Below are positions 35,881 to 48,044 of a stretch of 64,000 bases of DNA, one piece after another. Under the pieces are notes generated by a model, which ran no database searches, was not told where the DNA came from, and saw only the letters and a program-made list of their open reading frames with translations. Every line of letters starts with the position of its first letter. The stretch's first letter is position 1. A program made the position numbers and the translations under genes. Origin of the DNA: an uncultured Bacillota bacterium (GTDB taxonomy: Bacteria; Bacillota_I; Bacilli_A; RFN20; CAG-288); NCBI GenBank assembly GCA_949299015.1, contig CASFYT010000018.1, forward strand, positions 216 through 64,215. Reading direction: 5' to 3'.

Positions 35881-36531
35881 CTAGAGCAGTTTCATAAGCT
35901 TGCTCTTGAGCTCACGGATCGTATGACAGACATTGCCGGTATTGTTTCTTTCCAGCTCCTCGTCATAGGTCTTGGAGTGGGAATAGCCGGCGGAGAGGAG
36001 GTCGACCGGGACCTCCTTCATCGAGCGGATGTCTTCCAGGGTGTCCCCGACATAGACGACATCCTCTTTTTTGAGGTGGTTCTCTTCCAGAAGCTTTCTC
36101 ATCGAATCGGGCTTGTTGACGCTCTCCTGGGAACCCCAGTAACACTTTTCGAAGTAATTTTCATAGGAAAGCTTCCTCAGGGAGAGAAGGAGAGTCCTTT
36201 CGCTTCTTCCCGTCAGGAGGAAGAGACGTTTTCCTTTTTCCTTGAGGAGCTTGAGAATCTCTTCCATCTCTGGGAAGGGAATCAACAGATCTTCCTGTCT
36301 TTTCTCATAATAGTCGAAGAAAAAGGAAAGAGCTTCCTCGATTTTTTCGGGAGCGACGATCTTCTTCAGAATGCCATCTTCCGTCGGTCCGAAATAACGA
36401 TAGATTGCATCCGGACGGAAAAAGGGATCGTGATAGCGGTGGATCGTCTCGACCATCGTGACCTTCTCCAATTCGTTGGAATCGACCAAGGTCCCGTCGA
36501 AGTCGAAGACAAAGCATTCTTTCTTCTTCAT
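35881..36531 (-). CDS. HAD-superfamily hydrolase
   Basis: The product is 216 aa from the internal ATG. It shows FVFDFDGTLVDS (motif I), a LLTGRS block and VGDTLEDI. Confidence 0.85.
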   Translation of the reverse strand: MKKKECFVFDFDGTLVDSNELEKVTMVETIHRYHDPFFRPDAIYRYFGPTEDGILKKIVAPEKIEEALSFFFDYYEKRQEDLLIPFPEMEEILKLLKEKGKRLFLLTGRSERTLLLSLRKLSYENYFEKCYWGSQESVNKPDSMRKLLEENHLKKEDVVYVGDTLEDIRSMKEVPVDLLSAGYSHSKTYDEELERNNTGNVCHTIRELKSKLMKLL

Positions 36532-36748
36532 ACGCCTTGATTTTAAGCAGGCAAGCCGAAGAAAGAAAGACGAAAAACGCTTTCTTTGGGAAGAAGTTGC
36601 AAAGGAGAGAGAAAAACACAAACATCTTCGGACAAGACTGTGATTCTCACTTCTTTTAATTCAGAAGGAGACCCGGTATGTGAGATGGTCTTACGGAGAT
36701 TGGAAGTCCTTTGATGTTCAATCTCAGATAGCCTTCTAATCCACTCAA

Positions 36749-37204
36749 TCAGGCATCGTCTTGAATCATACCATCTTTGCATATTTTGGCTTCTTTTAAT
36801 TTTTCTAGGGCTCCAATTACAACTTTGATCTGTGCTCCCGATAGGACAAAACGACCTGTTGTCAGTGACTTTATCAAAGAGGAGATAATCGATTGTTCTT
36901 TAGGGTTGAGAATTCCTTGTTCCGTTCCGCAATCTAGGCATTCCTGCCACCCGTTAGGAGATATTCGATAAACCAAAATCGTATCAGTTACAGCGTTCTC
37001 TCTTGTTTGTTCATGTTTAGCAGAAATCTGATTAGCCTTGTATTCATCTCTGGAAATAAGTATTTTTCTTGCTTCATCCGAAGGAAAAATCTGAATTTCT
37101 TTTATAGCCTTCCAGCAGTCTTCTTTTTTGCATAGCACACTGATGTTTTTCTCTGGATGATTGCCATTATAGAAATAATCAAAGCATTTCGATGCGATGT
37201 CCAT
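36749..37204 (-). CDS. Hypothetical protein, possibly the C-terminal remnant of a larger gene
   Basis: The product is 151 aa from the internal ATG (MDIASKCF...). The longer tracked ORF overlaps the facing gene fragment. I recognise no motif. Confidence 0.4.
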   Translation of the reverse strand: MDIASKCFDYFYNGNHPEKNISVLCKKEDCWKAIKEIQIFPSDEARKILISRDEYKANQISAKHEQTRENAVTDTILVYRISPNGWQECLDCGTEQGILNPKEQSIISSLIKSLTTGRFVLSGAQIKVVIGALEKLKEAKICKDGMIQDDA

Positions 37205-37221
37205 GATAAGCCCATCTAGAT

Positions 37222-37818
37222 ATGAGAGGCATAAGACAAGAAACAAAATCTTATCCTGGTAAGAGTTTAAGAGAAGCAATTTTAAATGCCATCTGCCATG
37301 CTGATTATAGTATGCCATCGAACATTAAAATAGAATTTTATGTCGATAGAGTCGAAATAACTAATCCTGGCGGAATTTATAGATATAATATTGATGACAT
37401 TTTATTAGGAATTCAGTCCTTTAGAAATCCAAAATTGATAGCTGTGTTGCATAGGCTCGGATTCATAGAAAATTATGGAACGGGAATCAAGAGAATTAGA
37501 GAAGCTTATCCTAATTATGATATTAGAAACTTTTTGATAAATCGTCTTCAATGGTTTAGGGGCGTCTTACCGGATTTGAATTATGAAAAAGCTTCTTTGG
37601 AGGACAATGTCCCTCAAAATGTCCCTCAAAATGATTTAAGTAAGATAATTGACGCCATAAAAAAGAATGAAAGAATAACAAGAGAAGAATTAGCTGCTAT
37701 CATTGGGAAGAGCGTAAAGACCGTAGCGCGAATTATAAAAGAATCTGACTCAATTAAATTTGTAGGTTCATCAAAAACCGGTCATTGGGAAATCATAGAA
37801 GACAAGAAAGAAAATTAA
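37222..37818 (+). pseudogene. N-terminally truncated putative regulator (RecG-like HATPase_c_4 domain plus wHTH)
   Basis: The 198-aa fragment shows AILNAICHADYS...EITNPGG...RNPKLIAVLHRLGFIENYGTGIKRI and a C-terminal wHTH (ITREELAAIIGKSVKTVARIIKE). As I recall, full-length relatives are ~450-500 aa with an N-terminal AlbA_2/Schlafen domain, which is missing here. Confidence 0.6.
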
Positions 37819-37839
37819 GTCTATAACAAGCTCATTCAC

Positions 37840-37871
37840 GCCTCACTAGAAAAATCTGGTGAGGCTTTTTC
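37840..37871 (+). terminator. Rho-independent terminator
   Basis: The hairpin GCCTCAC-12nt-GTGAGGC is followed by TTTTT. Confidence 0.7.
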
Positions 37872-37914
37872 TTTAAAATCATTGCTTGCACATAAAACAC
37901 GGCCGACATTATGG

Positions 37915-38186
37915 ATAGTTACAAGAATTATGTGTGAAACCCGAGCTGCATCTTCCTGCCTCCTCCCTCTACTCCTCTGTCAGCTACGAGAAGTGTCTCT
38001 GGGTGATTCTTCCGGCGCTCTTGTTGTAGTTGCGGTAGACGAAAGTAATCACGATTGTTACGTTCTCCTCCGAGTTCATCATGACGCGCCTTCTCGTCTC
38101 CTTCTTCAGTTTGGAGTTGAACCCCTCAATCGCTTTTCTCAAATACACATACTTCTAGACCAATCTCCACAATTATTGTAACTGCC
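37915..38186 (-). mobile_element. IS256-family remnant (~270 bp, MITE-like) that keeps both inverted repeats
   Basis: The - strand frame 37984-38154 encodes KYVYLRKAIEGFNSKLKKETRRRVMMNSEENVTIVITFVYRNYNKSAGRITQRHFS*, which looks like the C-terminus of an IS256/mutator-type transposase. The ends are imperfect inverted repeats: AGTTACAAGAATTATGTG (37917-) and CCACAATTATTGTAACT (-38184). Confidence 0.6.
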
Positions 38187-38218
38187 AAAATAAAGTATTA
38201 GAAAACAAAAATCGCTGA

Positions 38219-38257
38219 GCAAAACGAACATTGAATACAAAATTCGTTTTTGCTTTT
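38219..38257 (+). terminator. Hairpin with T-run, possibly a relic terminator
   Basis: The stem GCAAAACGAA pairs with TTCGTTTTTGC across a 14-nt loop (38229-38242) and is followed by TTTTG. Confidence 0.35.
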
Positions 38258-38304
38258 GATGGCGTTCAGCTCACCTTTCGATCTTTATGCCAGAATCAGG
38301 CGCT

Positions 38305-38387
38305 GAAATTTCCCCCGATTTCCCTCGCTTTCCCACATTTCCTTTTTTGAGCGGATGTTTTTTGTAGGCTATTGGCGAACCGAGAGA
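38305..38387 (+). promoter_or_regulatory. Conserved upstream block of cassette A
   Basis: GAAATTTCCCCCGATTTCCCTCGCTTTCC (38305-33) and TTTTTGTAGGCTATTGGCGAACCGAGAGA (38358-87) closely match 42816-43 and 42859-88 upstream of cassette B. Confidence 0.55.
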
Positions 38388-38435
38388 CTCGTCTTCCGTT
38401 TTCTTAAGCACTCTCGACTCCATCGGAGGGAACGT

Positions 38436-38531
38436 ATGAAGAAGTTTGTTTTCAGGGAAGGATTCCGGGAGGGTATTGCTCGCGGAACCATGGCCGAGCT
38501 AACGCATCCAGGGAAGATGGGGGTAAAATGA
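38436..38531 (+). pseudogene. Collapsed DUF4417-like gene (31 codons)
   Basis: The product MKKFVFREGFREGIARGTMAELTHPGKMGVK* keeps the start (compare MKKTFFDDGFQDY...) and the tail (compare ...HSQEKGVK*) of the 223-aa gene at 42956-43627. The stop / 1 nt / ATG junction to the next gene is also the same. Confidence 0.6.
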
Positions 38532-38532
38532 T

Positions 38533-38910
38533 ATGGGCGTCACGTTGAGAAGGAATTCCTTGCCCGTAAAGTCGAACCCCTTTTACCATTACAATCCAAG
38601 AAGTGGATACTTCGGGACTTATGTTTCGGGGAACAAGATTAAGACGAGGCTAATCTATGCCGAAGATCCTGAAGAAGAAGCGAGGGAATTGTTCCGCCAA
38701 TTCGTTGTCGGAACGAAAATCGATGAGAGTGTTCCGGGGAAAAAGTGGAGTGCCGTGCTTGAGGATTGCTCTGTCATCACTTTGCGGATTAGGCATCCTA
38801 CCCCGGAACACGAACCGGCCGTCATGATCAGCGTGAAGAAAAGCGATGACCCGGCTGGGATTAGGACGCAGAAGATACATTTCGTAAAGAAAGGAGAAGA
38901 CAAGAAATGA
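38533..38910 (+). CDS. Small basic protein A2 (uncharacterised), paralogue of 43629-44045
   Basis: The 125-aa product is about 55-60% identical to B2 by hand alignment. Shared blocks are NP.Y.Y.P..GYFG, EAR.LF, PGK.W, ITLRI.HP.P.H.PAVMISVKK and QKIHFVK. Confidence 0.75.
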   Translation: MGVTLRRNSLPVKSNPFYHYNPRSGYFGTYVSGNKIKTRLIYAEDPEEEARELFRQFVVGTKIDESVPGKKWSAVLEDCSVITLRIRHPTPEHEPAVMISVKKSDDPAGIRTQKIHFVKKGEDKK

Positions 38911-39545
38911 AAGATCTGAATCTATCCATATCCCAGGAGGGAATCCGACTGTTGAAGGAAATGATCGGTCAAGAACTTGTTTCCGTGCGATATGCAAAAT
39001 TCGGTTCCGGAAACATCGTTTTCCAGAAGGTGGAACTTACGACTCCGCATGGAAAATATCTCATCGACAATGATGTTGGTTGGTTCGAGGATTTCTGTTC
39101 GGGTCCCGACGATCTTCCTTGCTTGAGTTTCAAAAAGCTTCCGGATGGTAAGAATCCGTTTGCGCATCGAAGCTCCGAAGAGATCATCACGGATGAAATT
39201 GGAGAAAAGATTACCGATATCTTGATCCTCCAGGATGAGGCCAATGTCTTTGATGGCGAAAAATATCTGCAGAAAATGGAATCCTCGGAAGGAATCATTC
39301 TTGTCATGGACAAAGCCCAATATGGATTCTTCAAGGAGAACATGTGGCTGGACGAAGAACTTGTCCTCTGCAAAGGCAGAAATGCCATGGATGGCCTCGA
39401 GAGCCTCAAGGACCATTTCGACATCTTCGGATATCCCTTCCGTGCGAAGTGCAAGAGGGTCGTCCTCTCCCTGAAAGACGGAACGGAAAGAGAGGTCGAA
39501 AGGGCAGAAGAAATCGGCGAAAGACCCGAAGAGGAGATCGGATGA
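38907..39545 (+). CDS. Acidic protein A3 (uncharacterised, immunity-like), paralogue of 44042-44674
   Basis: The 212-aa ORF shares an ATGA overlap with A2 and is roughly half identical to B3. Shared blocks are MKDL.LSIS, SSEGII, GFFK.NMWLDEE, HFDIFG.PFRAKC and AEEIGE. Confidence 0.75.
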   Translation: MKDLNLSISQEGIRLLKEMIGQELVSVRYAKFGSGNIVFQKVELTTPHGKYLIDNDVGWFEDFCSGPDDLPCLSFKKLPDGKNPFAHRSSEEIITDEIGEKITDILILQDEANVFDGEKYLQKMESSEGIILVMDKAQYGFFKENMWLDEELVLCKGRNAMDGLESLKDHFDIFGYPFRAKCKRVVLSLKDGTEREVERAEEIGERPEEEIG

Positions 39546-39887
39546 AGATGAATCTAATTTTATGGCGACATAAGGACAAGCAAACGCATTTTTATCCCAG
39601 GTAAAGTACTTTCTATAAACCTATTTCAGGATAGAAGACCGAGGCAAAATCGTTCCCAAATTTTAGCCGGTGTTTATTTCTCTTCTCTCGGCAAGTTCGT
39701 CCTATCATTTAGGGCATTCGAAGGCTAGGGAAAGAGAGCCAAACTGTTCTTTTGACTGCTTACGGTTATACGTGATATAGCTATGCGATTAAAGGATGAG
39801 TTGCCAAGAAAGGTGGACGACGTTCCTTTTTTGACTTGTCCAGGTAATGACATAAATGAAAGACAGAAGGACTGGATTACAATTGAT

Positions 39888-41529
39888 TTATTCTGCCGTT
39901 GACCATATGCGCCCAAACAGAGTGTTTTCTCCGTTTCCTAATCGAACAATTTGATGTTGTGTGATGATCTTTTGAACTTCATTTTCAAAAACGTTGATTC
40001 TGTCTATTGCAATGAAAATTTGTTTCCTTGAGTTATTGTAAATGCGGAACAAGCCTTCGACTGGCTCGTCCCACATGTTTTTGAAAAGCATCGAATCATC
40101 AATGACAAAAGGAAGCTTTGTCAATTCAAGGACAGCCATGTCAAATAGAAGAAGACCCTTATATTCCGTGCCCGCACCTTTGTCATTTGGAGTTTTATAA
40201 GTGTAATGGGAAAAGTCGGAAAGGGTCATCGTTGGCGCAAATCTTTTCTCCTTGTAAATGCTGTCATTCAATTCGGCAAGCTTTTCATTCAATGATTTTT
40301 CTATGCTTGAAAGGACATAGGAATATTCTTCGCCAAGCTGAAGCTTGTCATTTGCGATCTTGTTATCCAATTCTTTTTTCTTTTCGTACATAGCCACTTG
40401 GTTTTCCAGCTTTTTGATTTGATCGTTTTTGGCTTGGAACGCTTCGAGAAAGGCCTTAGGGATTCGAGGCGACACATTGTTTTTGAGGAGGGCATCGTTG
40501 ATTTCCCGGAGTCTTTTATTCACTTCGGAAATTTTGTCATTCAGATTTGCTTTTTGTTGATTGACCTCTTCATTGACGTTGATGCTCAAATTCCTTTGGA
40601 ATTCATTGATTTCCGTTAGTGATTTGAGATTGACATTTGGAAAAATGGAAACAAGTTTTTGCATATCGTCTTCCGTCATGAGAAGATTATCTCCGGTCAT
40701 GGATTCCAGACTGTTGAGACGAATCGAAAGCATCTTTCTTTTTCTCATCAGACAAATCTGCTCGGATTTGAGGTCGATGTCCGCTTGCGATAGTCTTTCG
40801 TCTGCAACCAAAGAGGCTTGGTCTTGACTTTTGACCAGTGAATCGATTTCTTGCCGGATTCGGGCAATTTCCTCTTTGGCAGCTTTGACATCGGAGGCTG
40901 TCTTGATCGGCGAATAGACTAGCCATATTTATTTGCGTCCTTCCACGCCTTTTTCGTCTTTTCAGCTTGCTCGATTTTCGCTAGAATTTCGTTCAGTAGT
41001 GTTCTCTTCCCGAAAAGATCAATGAGAACTTTAATTCCGTTTTCGTCTTTTGCGTCGTTGCCATAAGTTTTGAGCGGTTTCTCCACGTCGTAATTTCCCT
41101 TGCCATAGATCCTGGCGAAAGTATTGACCAAGCCTCTGAAGGAAGATACGACAGATGAGCCGAAATATTGTTCTCGAAGAAAGGAATTCAAGCAATCGAT
41201 GGACTTTTTTCCCCGATTGGAGTATAGGAAGAATCGCATTCATGATAGTGATTCGGATCGGAAGTCTCTCTAGAAAAATAATAATCGCGAGAATCGAATT
41301 CAAAAGTGAAGTAGATGGTATGGTCGCCAACATTTTTGATTATGTCGGAGTCTTTATTGGTATAGTCACTGCCTCCAAAACAAAAATCCACCATCATGAG
41401 AAGGCTGGACTTTCCGATGGAGTTCAAGGCATCATCCGTACCAACGACACAATTAAGGCCAAGCATGAACCGTATGGTCTTGTCCTTGATTTTGTTTGAG
41501 AATTTATCGCATTTGATTTCTTTCAACAT
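39888..41529 (-). pseudogene. ABC-3C-type (DUF2326-like) ABC/SMC-like ATPase, frameshifted into three pieces
   Basis: The N-terminal piece (41188-41529) starts MLKEIKCDKF...GLNCVVGTDDALNSIGKSSLL and carries Walker A. A middle piece (40919-41239) and a C-terminal piece (39888-~40928) carry a coiled coil, GAGTEYKG, LPFVIDDS (Walker B) and KQIFIAIDR. The frame breaks at the T6C4 run 41205-14 and at 40919-31. Confidence 0.7.
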
Positions 41530-41925
41530 TTTCTGATCCTTCCTTTTTCTGACATCTCTATTCGCCCAATGGCATACAAGGCACTTAATGCTTCATAAAA
41601 TGCCTTTGAATCCATTTTCTTGGATACTTTGCGATACAAATCAGCTGGTGCCGACTCAAATCCCAGTGAGTTTAAAATCTCCGTCATCTGATAAATGATA
41701 GTGGTCTTGTATCGATTGACCTTATTTGGAAATCTCATGGAAGACCTCACAGCTTTGAACGAAATAGGAGACGATGATTTCAGCGACGGATTTGTCACAA
41801 CAGCCGGCGATGGAGACTTTGTCGACAAGGAGATTGAAAATATCCTCCTTGTTTTGGGATTCCTTCTCTGCAAACAAGAAGGCCGTCCTTATCGTGGAAG
41901 AGAGAAGTTCGTATGAACGTCGCTC
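41523..41925 (-). pseudogene. ABC-3C middle-component-like gene, frameshifted
   Basis: The C-terminal frame encodes a wHTH-like ...MTEILNSLGFESAPADLYRKVSKKMDSKAFYEALSALYAIGRIEMSEKGRI. The N-terminal part (SYELLSSTIRTAFLFAEKESQ...EVFHEISK*) is in another frame that stops at 41722-24. The gene end overlaps the ATPase start by 7 nt. Confidence 0.55.
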
Positions 41926-42810
41926 TTAACCATCAAGTTCCCCGAACAACTTGTAGAGATTCGGGAAATAATGGGCGACATTCGATTTAATTTTGTTGTA
42001 GAGAAACAACTCATTTTCTTTATTAACTTTTTGATTTATTTTTAGGCTTTTCATATTCAAAACCACATCAGACGTTTTTGATTCTTTTAAAAGGATTTCA
42101 ATCGCAGACATCAGTTTTCCATCAACTGAAATGGTTCCGGCTTGCTTTCGAAGATTGGCTTTCTTTTCCAGTCTCTCTTTGGCATGGATCAAATCTTTGT
42201 CAAGCTTTCCAATCGTATAAAGATTTGCGCAATCTTTGCAAAGGCCAATCATTTTGTATGGCCTGCCAGTATCGGAGTCAAAGGTATCAAGTTTAGTGGC
42301 AACTATGGCGTTTTCGTCTGCGCTATTTAAACTAAGGCTTTTCCCGCAACAGGGGCAAATTCCATCATCTTCCTCGAAAAGTTGCGCCCGCAGCGTGGCG
42401 GTTCCTTGAAGCTGGGCGCTTCGAAACGTTGCGGAACTATCGAAGATGATTTTTTTGAACTGGTCTGCGACTTTTTGAGCAAAGTTCTCTTTGGTCACAT
42501 TTCCAACGTAACAGCTGAACGTTTCAACGAAATTCGCAAGTGAATCGCCTTGAATGGTATCTTCCAAAACCTTCACTAGGCCTGAAGTGTCCAAAACGGG
42601 GTATATCCTTTCCGCTATCCTGGATATCGAACTGATGCCACTGAAAAGATTCCTTTTCTGTTTTGGAGTCATCTTTGCTATGTCTTGTCCGATTTCACTG
42701 CCCGCATCACTTATCGAGTTCAACACAATCAAATCGAAAACTTCTGCCTTGCTTTTGCAACCGCTCTTCAAGAATGGCTCGAGCATCATGCACAATTCAC
42801 TGAAGGTCAT
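41926..42810 (-). CDS. First gene of the ABC-3C-like operon (effector/CTD position), function unknown
   Basis: This intact 294-aa ORF contains a CPCCGK...(x37)...CKDC zinc-ribbon-like pair. It is assigned to the system by gene order only. Confidence 0.55.
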   Translation of the reverse strand: MTFSELCMMLEPFLKSGCKSKAEVFDLIVLNSISDAGSEIGQDIAKMTPKQKRNLFSGISSISRIAERIYPVLDTSGLVKVLEDTIQGDSLANFVETFSCYVGNVTKENFAQKVADQFKKIIFDSSATFRSAQLQGTATLRAQLFEEDDGICPCCGKSLSLNSADENAIVATKLDTFDSDTGRPYKMIGLCKDCANLYTIGKLDKDLIHAKERLEKKANLRKQAGTISVDGKLMSAIEILLKESKTSDVVLNMKSLKINQKVNKENELFLYNKIKSNVAHYFPNLYKLFGELDG

Positions 42811-42815
42811 GTATC

Positions 42816-42888
42816 GAAATTTCCCTCGATTTCCCTCGTTTCCTTATCCGCCAGTGTGCTTTTTGTAATCTATTGGCGAGTTGAGACA
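42816..42888 (+). promoter_or_regulatory. Conserved upstream block of cassette B (divergent intergenic region)
   Basis: GAAATTTCCCTCGATTTCCCTCGTTTCC (42816-43) contains a tandem ATTTCCCYCG. CTTTTTGTAATCTATTGGCGAGTTGAGACA follows at 42859-88. Both blocks are shared with cassette A. Confidence 0.55.
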
Positions 42889-42955
42889 AGTTTCGATGCA
42901 ATACGAATATTGTATCAAAAATGTTCGCTCACTCTCATTACAAGGAGAAACAACC

Positions 42956-43627
42956 ATGAAAAAAACTTTTTTTGATGACGGTTTCCAAGACTACCTTGTC
43001 GACGGGGCACGGTTTGAAGGAAGGGACGGGATTCCAAGACTGCTCAACACGACCGGAGAGATCCCGGCGACCCTCATTCCGTTTGACAAAGCCAAGACCT
43101 CAAAAACAACGCATGGCTACCTTCATTTCTATATCCATGATCGTCAATACGGAAAAATCCTTACGGACACGAGGAAGTACGATGAATTGATTTCAAGGTT
43201 TGATGGAATTATCACTCCAGATCCCACGATTGTCATCGGCATGCCACATTGCATTCAGGCGGCGGCCACATACATGAGTCGGGCAATCGGGTATTACGAA
43301 CAATGTAGGGGAATATCGGTGATTCCCAATGTTCGGTGGGGAGACCCGTCAACATTCGATTTCTGCTTCCTTGGCATTCCGAAACATTCGGTCGTTTCGA
43401 TTGGCACGCACGGCGCCATTGCCAGGGACAGGGCCACGGGGAACCTTCTCCGGAATTGCTTCAGGGATGGACTTGGAAGGATGTTGGACGTCATCGAGCC
43501 GACGGATGTCCTTGTTTATGGCTATATGCCGGATGACGTTTTTCGTGATTTTTTTGGACGGACCAGGTTTCACAGGTATCCGTCGGAGTTCGAGAGGACC
43601 CATTCGCAAGAGAAAGGAGTAAAATGA
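42956..43627 (+). CDS. DUF4417-like protein B1 (function unknown)
   Basis: The product is 223 aa from the ATG that follows an AGGAG ribosome-binding site. The motif pattern YLHFYIHDRQY, GIITPDPTIVIGMP, YMSRAIGYY.Q..GISVIPNVRWGD and SIGTHG matches my recollection of Pfam DUF4417. Confidence 0.7.
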   Translation: MKKTFFDDGFQDYLVDGARFEGRDGIPRLLNTTGEIPATLIPFDKAKTSKTTHGYLHFYIHDRQYGKILTDTRKYDELISRFDGIITPDPTIVIGMPHCIQAAATYMSRAIGYYEQCRGISVIPNVRWGDPSTFDFCFLGIPKHSVVSIGTHGAIARDRATGNLLRNCFRDGLGRMLDVIEPTDVLVYGYMPDDVFRDFFGRTRFHRYPSEFERTHSQEKGVK

Positions 43628-43628
43628 G

Positions 43629-44045
43629 ATGGGAGTATCTGTAAAATCGTCTTTGCGACAACATTCCGCAACGCTAAGGGAAAACTCGTTGCTGGTGAAG
43701 GCCAATCCACTCTATAAGTATGATCCAAAGACAGGGTATTTCGGAGAACACAGAAAGGGAACGAGTATCGATGTCCGCCTTGTGTATGTGAATAGCAATC
43801 ATAAGCAAGAAGCTCGGATTCTATTCAACCAACTTGTCAGGGGAGTTTCCGAAATAACGGAAGACAAGCCAGGCAAGAGGTGGCACGCAAATTTGCAGGA
43901 TGGCTCCATAATAACTCTACGTATCGACCATCCAGATCCCAGCCATGCCCCCGCTGTCATGATAAGCGTGAAAAAAAACAACGACTCCGCTGGAATAGTA
44001 GATCAGAAAATTCATTTCGTAAAGGAAGGAGAAACCCGGAAATGA
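43629..44045 (+). CDS. Small basic protein B2 (uncharacterised, toxin-like by context)
   Basis: The 138-aa ORF starts 1 nt after the B1 stop. See A2 for the shared blocks. Confidence 0.75.
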   Translation: MGVSVKSSLRQHSATLRENSLLVKANPLYKYDPKTGYFGEHRKGTSIDVRLVYVNSNHKQEARILFNQLVRGVSEITEDKPGKRWHANLQDGSIITLRIDHPDPSHAPAVMISVKKNNDSAGIVDQKIHFVKEGETRK

Positions 44046-44674
44046 AAGACTTGGACTTATCGATCTCTGAAAAGGGAAAAGAAGATTTGAAAGCAATCAT
44101 CGGGCAAGAGAACATCTCATTCGTTTACCGCCGGGAAATGACGGACAACGAGGCTGTTTACAAGATTCAAATCAAGACCGAGAAAGGCAACTACCTTCTC
44201 ACAAACAGTCTCGACTGGTTTGATAACTGCTTTGCTGGCGGTGACTGGCTTCCGCATTTCGATATCGAAGCCTTGAGAGATGACGTGAATCCGTTTGAGA
44301 ATTCAAAAGAATCGAAACTCATTGTCATCACACTCGATGAGAAAGTCGTCGATATCCTGTTGCTAAGGGACACTGCGAATGTATTCAAGGGAGACAAGCA
44401 CTGGCAGAACATCGACTCGTCGGAAGGGATTATCTTTGTTACCGAAAAGCGCCAGTTGGGTTTCTTCAAGGATAACATGTGGCTTGATGAAGAGATTAAC
44501 ATCCACGAGGGAAAGAACGTGGTCGAGATGGCGGAAGGGCTGAAGAAACATTTCGACATCTTCGGCTGGCCGTTCCGTGCGAAATGCGAGAGGTTTCTGG
44601 TTTCTTTGAGCGATGGCGACGAGAAAAAACTTGATACAGCAGAGGAAATCGGTGAAAAGATCGAAGAGGAATAG
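44042..44674 (+). CDS. Acidic protein B3 (uncharacterised, immunity-like by context)
   Basis: The product is 210 aa from the ATG at 44042, which shares an ATGA overlap with B2. The tracked ORF 43880-44674 is an in-frame 5' extension that overlaps B2. Confidence 0.75.
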   Translation: MKDLDLSISEKGKEDLKAIIGQENISFVYRREMTDNEAVYKIQIKTEKGNYLLTNSLDWFDNCFAGGDWLPHFDIEALRDDVNPFENSKESKLIVITLDEKVVDILLLRDTANVFKGDKHWQNIDSSEGIIFVTEKRQLGFFKDNMWLDEEINIHEGKNVVEMAEGLKKHFDIFGWPFRAKCERFLVSLSDGDEKKLDTAEEIGEKIEEE

Positions 44675-44866
44675 GAAACCTAGTAACAATCGGTATCTTC
44701 TATTCAAATATTAGAACTGTTATATAATACAATTTTTCTCGCAATCATTTGCTTACGCATCAGAGAAGTTGCGTCGGTGACATGAAAAGCTTTCGGACAA
44801 GGAGCGGAAGCACAAGAATTTCTATGTGGAAGGTGTTGGAATACCTTGAACAAGTCATTGTTGCCG

Positions 44867-44925
44867 CAAAAACACACAACAGAATACAACAAAAACACAT
44901 AATGAAATACCACAAAAACACACAA
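44867..44925 (+). repeat. Three direct repeats CAAAAACACA(C/T)AA with a 23-bp period
   Basis: Copies start at 44867, 44890 and 44913, just upstream of the ATPase gene start (44967). TATCAT/CATAAT lies at 44955-63 and no Shine-Dalgarno sequence is visible. Confidence 0.8.
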
Positions 44926-44966
44926 TATATCTTGAATGCCAGCAAAATTACCCTTATCATAATGCT

Positions 44967-46274
44967 ATGGAAATGATTGGAAAGACACGCTATATTCCGC
45001 GTATTGCGGACAGTGAACTGCAAGACCGCCTCGAGGCTTCCGGTGCGGTCTTGATCGTCGGCCCCAAATGGTGTGGAAAGACGACGCTCGCCTCTCATCA
45101 GGCGAGGAGTGTCCTGTCCCTTCAGGATCCTGATCGCCGTTCCTCCTATATCTCCACGGCCTCCGTGAAGCCGTCCTTGCTCCTCAAGGGGGACAAGCCA
45201 AGGCTTCTCGATGAATGGCAGACGATTCCCGTGCTTTGGGATGCCGTACGGCATGATGTCGACCGAAGCGGGCTTTTGGGGCAATACATCCTGACAGGAT
45301 CAAATGCCGTCGACGAGAAGCAGATCCTGCATTCCGGAATCGGACGGATCGCACGGATGAAACTCTATCCGATGAGCCTATTCGAGACGGGCGAATCCAA
45401 TGGCGCCCTTTCCTTGGACAGACTCTTTTGCGATCCGAACTATGACATCGACGGAATGGTTTCTTCCCTGAGCGTGGAAGACCTGCTTTTCGCCACTTGC
45501 CGAGGAGGATGGCCTTCTTCGCTCTTCATGACTTCCCGGAAGGCGCAACTGCTCGTTCCGAAGGACTATCTGAATGGTGTCTGCGAAACGGAAATCTCGA
45601 CAGTCGATGGCGTCCGCCGAGATCCGGCCAAGACAAAGGCGCTTCTTTCCTCCTATGCGAGAAACGTATCGACGATGGTGAAAAAGACGACCCTTTTGCA
45701 GGACATCAACACCCAGGACACGGGGATGTCCATCGGTACCCTCGATAGCTATCTCTCGGCGCTGGAACGTCTCTTTGTCATCGAGGATGTCCCGGCTTGG
45801 TCACCGGCAATCCGCTCGGCTTCCTCGATGCAGAGTCGTCACAAGAGGGAATTCGTCGATCCATCGATTGGAATCGCTGCCCTTGGTCTCGCGCCCGAGT
45901 ATTTTGAGACCGATCTCAAGACCTTCGGCTTCTTCTTCGAGAACCTCTGCGCCCGGGATTTGCGCGTGTATTCGCAGAAAACGGGAGGACACCTGTCCTA
46001 CTATCATGACCGGTATGGCCTGGAAGCGGATTTCGTCCTACACCGGGACGATGGCCGCTATGCCCTTGTCGAATGCAAACTGGGGAGTGCGGAAATCGAG
46101 GAGGGCGCAAGACATCTTTTGGAGATCCGTCGCCTCTTGGAAGAGAAGATCGCAAGCGAAAAGCAATGCCCGTTGAAAGTGCCCGATCTCATGATCGTCC
46201 TGACCGGAGGGGAGATGGCTTATCGCCGTCCCGATGGCGTCGATGTCATCCCCATCGGTTGCTTGAGGGATTAG
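44967..46274 (+). CDS. AAA+ ATPase (AAA_14) with a DUF4143 / PD-(D/E)xK-like C-terminal domain
   Basis: The 435-aa product has Walker A (VGPKWCGKTT). The C-terminal block GLEADFVLHRDDGRYALVECKLG fits a D...E.K nuclease-fold motif. Confidence 0.85.
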   Translation: MEMIGKTRYIPRIADSELQDRLEASGAVLIVGPKWCGKTTLASHQARSVLSLQDPDRRSSYISTASVKPSLLLKGDKPRLLDEWQTIPVLWDAVRHDVDRSGLLGQYILTGSNAVDEKQILHSGIGRIARMKLYPMSLFETGESNGALSLDRLFCDPNYDIDGMVSSLSVEDLLFATCRGGWPSSLFMTSRKAQLLVPKDYLNGVCETEISTVDGVRRDPAKTKALLSSYARNVSTMVKKTTLLQDINTQDTGMSIGTLDSYLSALERLFVIEDVPAWSPAIRSASSMQSRHKREFVDPSIGIAALGLAPEYFETDLKTFGFFFENLCARDLRVYSQKTGGHLSYYHDRYGLEADFVLHRDDGRYALVECKLGSAEIEEGARHLLEIRRLLEEKIASEKQCPLKVPDLMIVLTGGEMAYRRPDGVDVIPIGCLRD

Positions 46275-46308
46275 TTGTCGCTTTTGAACCGATTTTGTGT
46301 CGGAGATT

Positions 46309-46329
46309 TTGCACAGCGGTCGTGTGCAA
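46309..46329. terminator. Hairpin between convergent genes
   Basis: TTGCACA-gcggtcg-TGTGCAA forms a 7-bp stem, preceded by a T-rich stretch. Confidence 0.35.
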
Positions 46330-46398
46330 GGTTTCCGGGCAACACATACTTTTACGCTCCTCCCGGAGTTCAAATCAAATGCGATAATTCTAGAACGA

Positions 46399-46680
46399 TC
46401 AATCGTTTGCAAGTCTTCTGTTGAGGTCTTCGTAGTCGATGCATTCGGGGTTCCAGTTAAGTTCATCGATGGCCTTGACCGCACTCAACGGAGCATCGTG
46501 ATCAATCTCTTCTCCGGCCTCTTCTTGCTGGGTCAAAGGAACTTCAACCTCGCTTTCCAAAAAATCGATGAGGTCATATACATTTTCGCTTGTTACCGGA
46601 AGTATGGTTCTCAAGGCTTCGACAGATAAAAAACGTTTGATAAATTCAATAGACTCATCGCTGACTATTATTTTTTTCAT
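46399..46680 (-). CDS. Small acidic protein, putative immunity/antitoxin partner 2
   Basis: The 93-aa ORF overlaps the upstream toxin-like ORF by 26 nt. It is homologous to 47239-47502 (FIK, YDL, GE.ID, DEL, ID.EDL..RL). Confidence 0.7.
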   Translation of the reverse strand: MKKIIVSDESIEFIKRFLSVEALRTILPVTSENVYDLIDFLESEVEVPLTQQEEAGEEIDHDAPLSAVKAIDELNWNPECIDYEDLNRRLAND

Positions 46681-46936
46681 ATGCTTTCATGTCCTTTCTC
46701 AATTCTTTGTCGTGGAATCGTCTCACCGAGCATACGTTTTTGTTGAACGGATTGATCACGCTCAGGATTTTGTTCAAGCTGAAACGCTTGTAAGCCGGTC
46801 TTCCGAAGATGTCCCTTTTGGTCTTCGTTCTAAGAAGTGACCTCTTTCTGAAATTATACCCCAATTGCCTTTTGTTATATCTCTTTTCTGTATGTCGTGG
46901 GTGGCATTCCTGGTGACATATCCCGCTTAGATGCAC
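46655..46936 (-). CDS. DUF4258-like toxin 2 (start uncertain, possibly degraded)
   Basis: The C-terminal ~70 aa (LGYNFRKR...INPFNKNV...) aligns with toxin 1. The GTG start at 46936 is a guess. An alternative frame upstream (46875-47075) also carries an H..DH-like motif. Confidence 0.45.
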   Translation of the reverse strand: MHLSGICHQECHPRHTEKRYNKRQLGYNFRKRSLLRTKTKRDIFGRPAYKRFSLNKILSVINPFNKNVCSVRRFHDKELRKDMKAYEKNNSQR

Positions 46937-47187
46937 CCACGCTGTTCTGAACCAGACAAACCTTTTCTGCAACGTGGTCAAGCGGATGTTCCGGGTCCAC
47001 CTCCGAGTCCATCCGCGGAACGTCCGGAAGTGGCTGGACGAGCTTCGTCGAGAGAAGATGAATCCATGACGACAAGGCATACGAAAATTACTTCTTCAAG
47101 GTCATCGAAAGAATATTCCTTTCTGGAAAAAGTCTTAGATGAAGGGAAGTTCGAAGGAGGTAGAAACACGATTATTGTTCCATCTCT

Positions 47188-47220
47188 TCAAGAAAAAGAA
47201 AAGGACTCGCTTCGGAGCCC
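47188..47220 (-). terminator. Candidate terminator after toxin/immunity pair 1
   Basis: On the - strand GGGCTC-cgaagc-GAGTCC is followed by TTTTCTTTTTC. The stem has one mismatch. Confidence 0.45.
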
Positions 47221-47238
47221 TCTCTGCTTCAGCATTTC

Positions 47239-47502
47239 TTATTTGAGCCGATTGCTTAGATCTTCCAAGTCGATTTCGTTGTCTCTCAGCTCATCTCCCG
47301 CCTTGGTGGCGTCCTCGAGAAGCTTCATGTCGATAGGCTCGCCATTCTCCTGCTTGTTTACCAGGAAATATTCGAACCTGTGGGCGATATCCACCTCCAA
47401 ATCGTACAAGGAGTCCTCTGTCAAAGGCATGAATTTGGAGATCTCGTCCTTTGAATAATGCTCCTTGATGAAGCCGACTAGGAAGTCACTTGCCTTGACC
47501 AT
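47239..47502 (-). CDS. Small acidic protein, putative immunity/antitoxin partner 1
   Basis: The 87-aa ORF has a GGAG ribosome-binding site and overlaps the toxin-like ORF by 17 nt. Confidence 0.7.
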   Translation of the reverse strand: MVKASDFLVGFIKEHYSKDEISKFMPLTEDSLYDLEVDIAHRFEYFLVNKQENGEPIDMKLLEDATKAGDELRDNEIDLEDLSNRLK

Positions 47503-47809
47503 GCTTGTGCATCTCCTTTCTTTTCGCTTTCTTCAGAGTCCTTTCCCCATAGGGATAAACGGTTATGACCCTCTTTCGGAACGGATTGATGGCGGCGAAT
47601 ATCCTGTTCCAACCGAACCTCCCGTAGGAAGGCTCGTTGCCGTAGTTCATCGTCACCGAGGTCTTGAATCTTGGCTTGTGCCGAAGATTGTAACCAAGCT
47701 CCCCCTTCGACACGTTCCTCTCCTTCATCCTCTTCACGGCATGATCCGTGACGTGGTAGCCGCTTGTATTATACGGCTTCTTCGGAATGATTTTCTTTCT
47801 CATCCCCAT
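47486..47809 (-). CDS. DUF4258-like small basic toxin 1
   Basis: The 107-aa product is very basic. The N-terminal YHVTDHAVKRMKERNVSKGEL matches the H...HA..R...R pattern I associate with DUF4258. Confidence 0.65.
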   Translation of the reverse strand: MGMRKKIIPKKPYNTSGYHVTDHAVKRMKERNVSKGELGYNLRHKPRFKTSVTMNYGNEPSYGRFGWNRIFAAINPFRKRVITVYPYGERTLKKAKRKEMHKHGQGK

Positions 47810-47825
47810 CGCCTTTCTGGCCTTC

Positions 47826-48044
47826 TCATGTTTGCCAAAGCAAGTATAAACCCTGTTCTTTCCACTGCTTTATAGAAAAACTCGAAAAAACTCTTGACAG
47901 AGTTTCGACGATTCCGTTCTCTTCACTATTTGCTATTGCTTCGTAGTCCAGACTGTATCGTTTCAAAATGGCATAAGAAACAATTGTCGCTACAGTCTCG
48001 TCCATTCTTTTTCCGTGGTCTTGCCAAAGTGTCGACGTCCACAT
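47826..48044 (-). CDS. Small hypothetical ORF
   Basis: This 72-aa ORF ends 16 nt before toxin 1. It has no recognisable motif and may not be expressed. Confidence 0.25.
   Translation of the reverse strand: MWTSTLWQDHGKRMDETVATIVSYAILKRYSLDYEAIANSEENGIVETLSRVFSSFSIKQWKEQGLYLLWQT

Follow-up and report, generated by a model that had tools for sequence, protein, structure and literature searches.

DUF4417, a widespread domain of unknown function, shows an enrichment in phages and mobile elements and has received little mention in the literature. In contact-dependent inhibition (CDI) and Rhs loci, orphan toxin–immunity cassettes are known in which a second, diverged pair lies near a complete system and the conserved upstream component is reduced to short fragments. 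Polymorphic toxin/immunity modules of the MuF type are carried by temperate phages, and their immunity open reading frames (ORFs) are under 150 aa (Jamet et al., 2017; PMC5576092). Here, we describe two cassettes related to these systems in a 64,000-nucleotide stretch of DNA (the window) from an uncultured Bacillota bacterium of the CAG-288 lineage (GenBank assembly GCA_949299015.1, contig CASFYT010000018.1, positions 216 to 64,215 of the forward strand). Both belong to an operon family, DUF4417–X–Y, in which the DUF4417 gene is followed by genes for two unnamed protein families that we call X and Y. Cassette B (genes B1, B2 and B3) is complete. Cassette A (38305–39545) consists of an upstream block, a stub of the DUF4417 gene (A1) and full-length X and Y genes (A2 and A3). 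We regard cassette A as probably an orphan toxin–immunity pair from a second DUF4417–X–Y module linked to a Lamassu system.

Cassette A resembles the MuF modules (PMC5576092) in that X forms the C-terminal extension of a MuF protein in two loci (designated L064 and L098), with a Y gene downstream. A variable toxin part, a conserved upstream part and gut Firmicutes hosts are also common to both. The differences are that X in the window is a free-standing protein of 125 aa, the upstream partner of which is a separate DUF4417 protein or the 31-codon stub, that X matches no toxin domain listed for the MuF modules or in Pfam, that Y is longer than the MuF immunity proteins and that cassette A lies in a defence island rather than in a phage packaging module. 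Of the features by which a MuF-type module is recognized, fusion to a trafficking domain is seen in L064 and L098 (A2 itself is unfused) and a predicted immunity gene is present downstream, whereas a recognized toxin domain is not. Judged by the general description of the CDI/Rhs orphan cassettes, cassette A is similar to them as a diverged pair close to a complete counterpart, with a fragmentary upstream gene. However, the toxin ORF of cassette A is complete, with its own start codon and ribosome-binding site, its upstream remnant is a coupled, open ORF of 31 codons, and the flanks of A and B are too diverged (about 54% at the DNA level) for recombination with B.

Type II toxin–antitoxin modules likewise pair small, overlapping genes for a basic and an acidic protein that persist together on a mobile island, and elsewhere in the family (about 20 loci) a pair of Xre and ImmA/COG2856 genes often lies upstream. 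In contrast to such modules, the toxin gene comes first in cassette A, Y is larger than X and lacks a recognizable DNA-binding domain, and a third gene, that of DUF4417, normally stands upstream. A2 and A3 matched none of the type II toxin–antitoxin families, and no DNA-binding antitoxin was found among them. With Lamassu/ABC-3C systems (LmuA–LmuC–LmuB, with DUF2326, MC7 and CTD11 proteins) cassette A shares a leader/repeat region; it differs in containing no Lamassu gene, and the wider DUF4417–X–Y family occurs without Lamassu. As far as the compared loci indicate, the link between DUF4417–X–Y and Lamassu is a recurrent physical coupling that was previously undescribed, and a functional coupling is putative.

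Structure of cassette A

For comparison, one genome per species was scanned with an alignment of 13 X sequences, and the 80 loci obtained were analysed using our own profiles. At least four unrelated chromosomal contexts carry the same layout of six genes, in which an operon for a CTD11 effector, an MC7 middle component and a DUF2326 ATP-binding cassette (ABC) ATPase is divergent from DUF4417, X and Y. In the clade closest to the window cassettes, this Lamassu/ABC-3C operon is always the divergent neighbour of DUF4417–X–Y.

The block upstream of A1 corresponds to the region between the two divergent operons of such a module. The sequences GAAATTTCCCYCGATTTCCCTCG and TTTTTGTARNCTATTGGCGA occur twice each in the 64 kb, at 38305/42816 and at 38359/42860, respectively, where shuffled sequences gave an expectation of 0. 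When block A was aligned with the three-repeat allele of the B block, which is found in a sister strain, 64 of 83 positions (77%) were identical, compared with 43.6 ± 3.3 (maximum 54) for shuffled sequences. Block A contains three to four 10 bp tandem repeats (ATTTCCCCCG ATTTCCCTCG CTTTCCCACA TTTCC...) and a second box, TTTTTGTAGGCTATTGGCGA. Both elements are retained as far as the site where the effector start codon would lie, to the left of which nothing of the module remains. Block A is read as the fossil divergent intergenic region of a six-gene module, that is, as the leader/operator region of a lost Lamassu operon. The preliminary description of the window had pointed to a conserved upstream block, which is indeed present; its value as evidence of a retained promoter did not survive, as the core −10 element of the intact modules is absent from cassette A. 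A search of the A spacer for TGnTAnnnT on both strands found none, whereas TGnTACAAT is present there on the minus strand in every intact module.

In every module, the start codon of the Lamassu effector gene is directly adjoined by two to four copies of the 10 bp repeat (AyTTCCCTCG), with sites at 42816–42850 in the window and in the intergenic regions of L002, L006, L012, L015, L023–L025 and L029. The repeat unit of L029 is different (AGGTTCGYCR) but is found in the same place, and the copy number is two in window B and three in strain L002. The repeats look like a co-varying operator or leader element. In the intact modules, the extended −10 element lies about 110–120 nt from the effector start on the minus strand, inside the palindrome ACAATATTGT (42905–42917, minus strand, in the window); TGnTACAAT and its palindrome occupy the same position in eight other loci. 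With this arrangement, the Lamassu and DUF4417 operons would probably be transcribed from divergent promoters that overlap.

A1 reads MKKFVFREGFREGIARGTMAELTHPGKMGVK. Its two ends were scored against the DUF4417 termini of the close clade, with 622 window ORFs as the background. The first 17 residues scored 36.5 (background −13.3 ± 8.2, best other ORF 16.7; z = 6.1) and the last nine residues scored 12.6 (background −7.5 ± 4.8; z = 4.2), a value that is exceeded by B1 alone. The closest sequence to the tail AELTHPGKMGVK is FELTHPKKKGVK of locus L024. The junction GTAAAATGAnATGGG, in which the stop codon and the next ATG are separated by 1 nt, is common to A and B, and together with the ribosome-binding site for A2 it sits in the 3′ end of A1. 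Compared with B1 (223 aa; Pfam DUF4417, E = 2.9e-40), about 192 codons are gone in frame from A1; the deletion leaves the Shine–Dalgarno sequence and start codon of A1 and the 3′ codons bearing the translational signals of A2.

No Pfam match was obtained for A1, the gathering score for DUF4417 (PF14386) being 28.9 bits, and against a profile of 19 DUF4417 proteins it scored −0.8 bits (B1 scored 138 bits). A family-wide hidden Markov model of DUF4417 gave no signal for A1, since conservation of the termini is confined to the close clade. By its ends, its operon position, the block and the junction, A1 is identified as a DUF4417 remnant by descent and not as a member of the family. The collapsed A1 is also found in four further metagenome assemblies of near relatives (L001–L004) and is therefore no assembly artefact of this genome.

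None of A2, A3, B2 and B3 contains a premature stop. The identity is 57.6–60% between A2 and B2 and 48.6% between A3 and B3. All of the invariant residues of their families are kept in A2 and A3; in A2, the invariant or near-invariant residues of X are M1, G2, N8, G25, F27, G28, R39, D78, R85, P95, A96, Q113, K114, I115, H116 and F117. Against our own profiles, A2 matched X (2.8e-59) and A3 matched Y (1.2e-94), in the order X then Y on the same strand. The two families contrast in charge, with a pI of 9.5–9.7 for X and 4.7 for Y. The predicted structure of A3 (predicted local distance difference test, pLDDT, 84; predicted template-modelling score, pTM, 0.84) consists mostly of β-strands without a helix–turn–helix, and no fold match to it was found in the PDB or BFVD (TM score 0.22 or less). 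Neither X nor Y was matched in Pfam, NCBIfam, PADLOC or PHROGs, and no relative was found in the PDB by sequence; profiles of DUF4417, X and Y searched against the PDB gave nothing below E = 0.1.

In an alignment of 52 X proteins, the N-terminal Met-Gly is invariant or nearly so; in many of them, a Gly/Ser/Asn-rich segment comes next, the length of which varies. Processing or modification of the N-terminal glycine could account for the conserved Met-Gly, as could a constraint imposed by overlap with the end of the DUF4417 gene.

Each element of the decayed second cassette given in the preliminary description was thus recovered (the block, the collapsed A1, the junction and full-length A2 and A3), and the relationship between the 31-codon ORF and B1 that it had proposed is supported by the scores of both ends. 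The features are listed in Table 1.

Table 1. Coordinates of cassette A, its neighbours and the MuF–X proteins. Positions are those of the window unless a locus is given.
Feature	Position	Strand	Remarks
Presumed IS256-family transposase, C-terminal fragment, about 55 codons	37984..38148	−	Translation (...IEGFNSKLKKETRRR...); borders the expected place of the Lamassu half of A
Upstream block (A)	38305..38385	+	Homologous to 42816–42887 and to the intergenic regions of L002, L006, L012, L015, L023–L025
Spacer before A1, shortened	38386..38435	+	Shine–Dalgarno GGAGGG; without the palindrome/extended −10 of intact modules
A1, DUF4417 gene remnant, 31 codons	38436..38531	+	In-frame fusion of N-terminal (about 17) and C-terminal (about 13) codons
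A2 (X), 125 aa, pI 9.5	38533..38910	+	Unnamed family of about 125–150 aa; predicted toxin domain
A3 (Y), 212 aa, pI 4.7, β-rich	38907..39545	+	4 nt overlap with A2 (ATGA); predicted immunity protein
Lamassu/ABC-3C operon: CTD11 effector, MC7 middle component, DUF2326 ABC ATPase	39888..42810	−	Pseudo-operon
Cassette B, intact counterpart	42816..44674	+	Block 42816–42887, B1 42956–43627, B2 43629–44045, B3 44042–44674
MuF–X proteins	L064:1778-3142; L098:2885-4264		Phage_Mu_F 3.6e-8 (Pfam); TIGR01641 3e-15, above cut-off

DUF4417–X–Y operons in other species

The X profile found 148 representative proteins; Y is a rare family, represented by 12 of 5.8 billion clusters. The 80 loci come mostly from gut and rumen Bacillota and from Coriobacteriia, with a few from Spirochaetota, Fibrobacterota and Bacteroidota, and the order DUF4417, X, Y is found in nearly all of them. 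Wherever the downstream sequence is long enough, X is followed by Y, which in L087 and L097 is diverged, and tandem copies of Y are present in L042, L075 and L098. A MuF/SPP1 gp7 N-terminal part is joined to a C-terminal X in L064 (455 aa, X at residues 341–454) and in L098 (460 aa, X at residues 353–460). Downstream of these genes there is one Y gene in L064 and there are two in L098; DUF4417 is not nearby in either. In other forms, X carries a glycine-rich N-terminal extension of about 100 residues.

Several states of decay are represented (L-numbers denote the loci). DUF4417 is frameshifted beside intact X and Y in five species (L020, L032, L050, L072 and L083), while L031, L055 and L066 retain an intact Y but have lost DUF4417 and most of X; no locus was found among those surveyed in which Y had been lost with X intact. 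This order of loss, with immunity going last and DUF4417 being dispensable, is what a toxin/immunity pair predicts. Together with the MuF–X–Y loci and the constant adjacency of X and Y, it upholds the earlier suggestion that the pair behaves as a toxin/immunity pair without DUF4417 in cis.

The components also differ in rate: DUF4417 is the slowest to evolve, by a factor of three to five relative to X and Y. From B to L024, the tree path is 0.27 for DUF4417, 0.98 for X and 1.3 for Y, and the nonsynonymous divergence (dN) is 0.16–0.20, 0.32–0.41 and 0.45–0.48, respectively. A slow DUF4417 with fast X and Y is the constant-plus-variable pattern of polymorphic toxin loci.

Several further features of the family were recorded. 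The MuF–X gene of L098 adjoins sporulation genes (SleB/YpeB), outside any phage packaging module. Outside the Lamassu-linked clade, an Xre-type repressor and an ImmA/IrrE (M78) peptidase are encoded upstream in about 20 of the 80 loci; with DUF4417, X and Y they form a five-gene unit on mobilizable elements (e.g. L019:3293-4119, L021:3208-4096 and L062:2529-3098). A Fic protein is encoded upstream of DUF4417–X–Y in nine loci. Three long proteins (P0096, P0099 and P0121) that appeared to contain X in the representative search were rejected as Ig/cadherin-repeat proteins with spurious matches.

Origin, selection and alternative explanations

In the trees of X and of Y, A and B branch separately from a polytomy that they share with cassettes of Faecalibacillus, Lachnospiraceae and Bacillales metagenome-assembled genomes (MAGs), and a recent duplication of B as the source of A was rejected on this basis. 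The old duplication favoured in the preliminary description was not supported either: in the Y tree, the path from A to L024, L015 and L023 is 0.92, whereas that from A to B is 1.39. Two acquisitions, or a very old paralogy predating the spread of the cassettes, fit these trees better than a duplication within the genome.

Nonsynonymous and synonymous divergence between A and B was calculated by the Nei–Gojobori method. This comparison, which had been suggested at the outset as a measure of selection on A2 and A3, was uninformative: synonymous sites are saturated (proportion of synonymous differences 0.82–0.90), no ratio could be obtained and the history before the deletion dominates. The window was compared with its sister strains instead. 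A2 shows two nonsynonymous and four synonymous substitutions (ratio of nonsynonymous to synonymous rates, ω, 0.13) and A3 shows 8.5 and 5.5 (ω 0.40–0.49, P = 0.053); taken together, the 10.5 nonsynonymous and 9.5 synonymous substitutions are fewer nonsynonymous changes than the neutral expectation (P = 0.004). An open frame of 1,017 bp has been kept in five assemblies at a synonymous divergence of 0.04–0.05, during the accumulation of which further island genes were broken (the ATPase and effector genes in the window, and the effector gene and B2 in L001). These comparisons support the view that A2 and A3 are not decaying neutrally, as the preliminary description had held.

The reading of cassette A as an orphan toxin–immunity pair draws on the homology of its parts, the six-gene module, the MuF–X fusions, the constant X–Y adjacency, the rate asymmetry and the synonymous excess. 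It may be set out as follows. A full mobile conflict module of six genes, with a Lamassu/ABC-3C operon divergent from DUF4417–X–Y, would have been present as a copy separate in descent from B. The Lamassu half would have been lost, with a breakpoint at its start-codon position beside the IS256 remnant, as would about 20 bp containing the shared core promoter element, and about 192 DUF4417 codons would have been removed in frame, perhaps in this order. If cassette A is expressed, the 31-codon leader ORF would still bring ribosomes as far as the stop/ATG junction and the ribosome-binding site for X. We infer that X is toxic and would be a small effector domain, basic in charge and of the polymorphic-toxin type, at a guess probably a nuclease, and that Y would be the acidic cognate protein that neutralizes it. 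The pair would maintain itself, as a cell that lost Y but went on producing X would be harmed, and Y might also guard against the same type of toxin arriving from outside, for example in phage MuF proteins. On both counts, DUF4417 would not be needed in cis.

If so, cassette A is a natural deletion experiment in a conserved three-gene operon: X–Y would be its self-sufficient core and DUF4417 would be dispensable in cis, and therefore an accessory, delivery or regulatory partner rather than an antidote. The presence of two diverged X–Y pairs in one genome (58% and 49% identity) is also suited to a comparison of immunity specificity.

A number of observations weigh against this reading. Among the 80 species-level loci, the exact state of cassette A (DUF4417 deleted, X and Y full-length) was found in no other species, so that persistence without DUF4417 is represented by one lineage and by the five DUF4417 genes with frameshifts, for which sequencing errors in the MAGs could be responsible. 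The selection test comprises only 20 substitutions, and the ω of 0.40–0.49 for A3 is relaxed compared with the 0.09–0.13 between intact cassettes. X matched none of the known toxin families in Pfam, NCBIfam, PADLOC, PHROGs or the PDB; its predicted structure is poor (pLDDT 62), and the PDB fold matches of that model are meaningless. At 185–215 aa, Y is above the size of typical immunity proteins. Finally, the conserved core −10 element has been deleted from cassette A and a promoter scan upstream of A1 found no σ70-like site, for which reason the cassette may be poorly expressed or silent.

One alternative is that DUF4417 is required, as an activator, chaperone, delivery adaptor or co-antidote, and that B1, 4.4 kb away, serves cassette A. 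This we consider improbable. It would agree with the position of DUF4417 before X in nearly all 80 loci, where the stop and start codons usually overlap or are adjacent, and with the presence of exactly one intact DUF4417 gene in the genome; as the slowest component, one copy of DUF4417 could plausibly serve diverged partners. Each of the three strain assemblies that span B1 also has it in intact form, L001 with its frameshifted B2 included, but this is weak support, coming from three closely related assemblies. The MuF–X–Y loci without a nearby DUF4417 gene and the five frameshifted DUF4417 genes beside intact X and Y argue against such a dependence. It is less likely still that A3 alone is selected, against X toxins delivered by phages or neighbours, with A2 as a passenger that has not yet decayed on the way to a Y-only state. 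The three loci with an orphan Y and a truncated X show such an end state, as does the frameshifted X with an intact Y in cassette B of L001; the two Y genes of the genome are only 49% identical, as different specificities would give, and the ancestral promoter core is absent from A. However, A2 is tighter than A3 between strains (ω of 0.13 versus 0.40, from tiny counts), which is the opposite of what a passenger would show, and A2 has lost none of its family-invariant residues, nor its ribosome-binding site or the coupling junction.

We think it very unlikely that cassette A is a neutral relic, a silent pseudo-operon not yet disabled in which the frames are open by chance. The lack of a recognizable promoter would be expected of such a relic, the adjacent Lamassu genes are pseudogenes, decayed modules fill the island and the sample in the selection test is small. 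Against this stand the length of open frame kept in five assemblies despite their synonymous divergence, the ratio of nonsynonymous to synonymous changes below the neutral value, the retention of every invariant residue and the nature of the DUF4417 deletion, which preserves the reading frame exactly and leaves the translational signals of X untouched. The orphan-pair reading is retained here. A broader proposal can be made only tentatively, and we would not expect it to hold in full: DUF4417–X–Y might be an undescribed polymorphic-toxin-like system in which DUF4417 is the constant part (for delivery, activation or modification of a toxin with an invariant N-terminal Met-Gly) and X–Y are exchangeable cartridges. 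B1 would then serve several cartridges in trans, cassette A would be a functional spare and Lamassu would be wired to the system through the shared, repeat-controlled divergent promoter.

Cassette B, the Lamassu genes and the island

The operon at 39888–42810 was assigned to cassette B, to which it is divergent; cassette A lies on its other, convergent side. Its identity as Lamassu/ABC-3C is based on the Pfam families DUF2326, MC7 and CTD11, on PADLOC matches to LmuB and on literature equating the two names. In the window, the DUF2326 ATPase gene is split over three frames (39888–40811, 40919–41239 and 41188–41529) and the CTD11 effector gene has a premature stop, with profile positions 1–292 and 294–360 in separate ORFs. 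Both genes are intact in the sister strain L002. No Lamassu genes were found to the left of 38305. In the sister strain L001 (12709–13121), B2 is frameshifted near its 3′ end, with loss of the QKIHF motif, while B1 and B3 are intact; the effector gene of this strain is also frameshifted. Cassette B is followed by a gene for an AAA_14/DUF4143 ATPase (44967–46274), and a gene of the same family stands beside the orphan Y of L031 (1496–2680), making it a possible recurrent neighbour.

Directly to the left of cassette A, in addition to the transposase fragment, which we take to be of the IS256 family, there is a truncated gene for a regulator with HATPase_c_4 and winged helix–turn–helix domains (37222–37818, plus strand). 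The small genome (1.14 Mb; 19 contigs; completeness 85%) has a GC content of about 0.59, and positions 36000–48000 of the window form a low-GC island (0.35–0.49).

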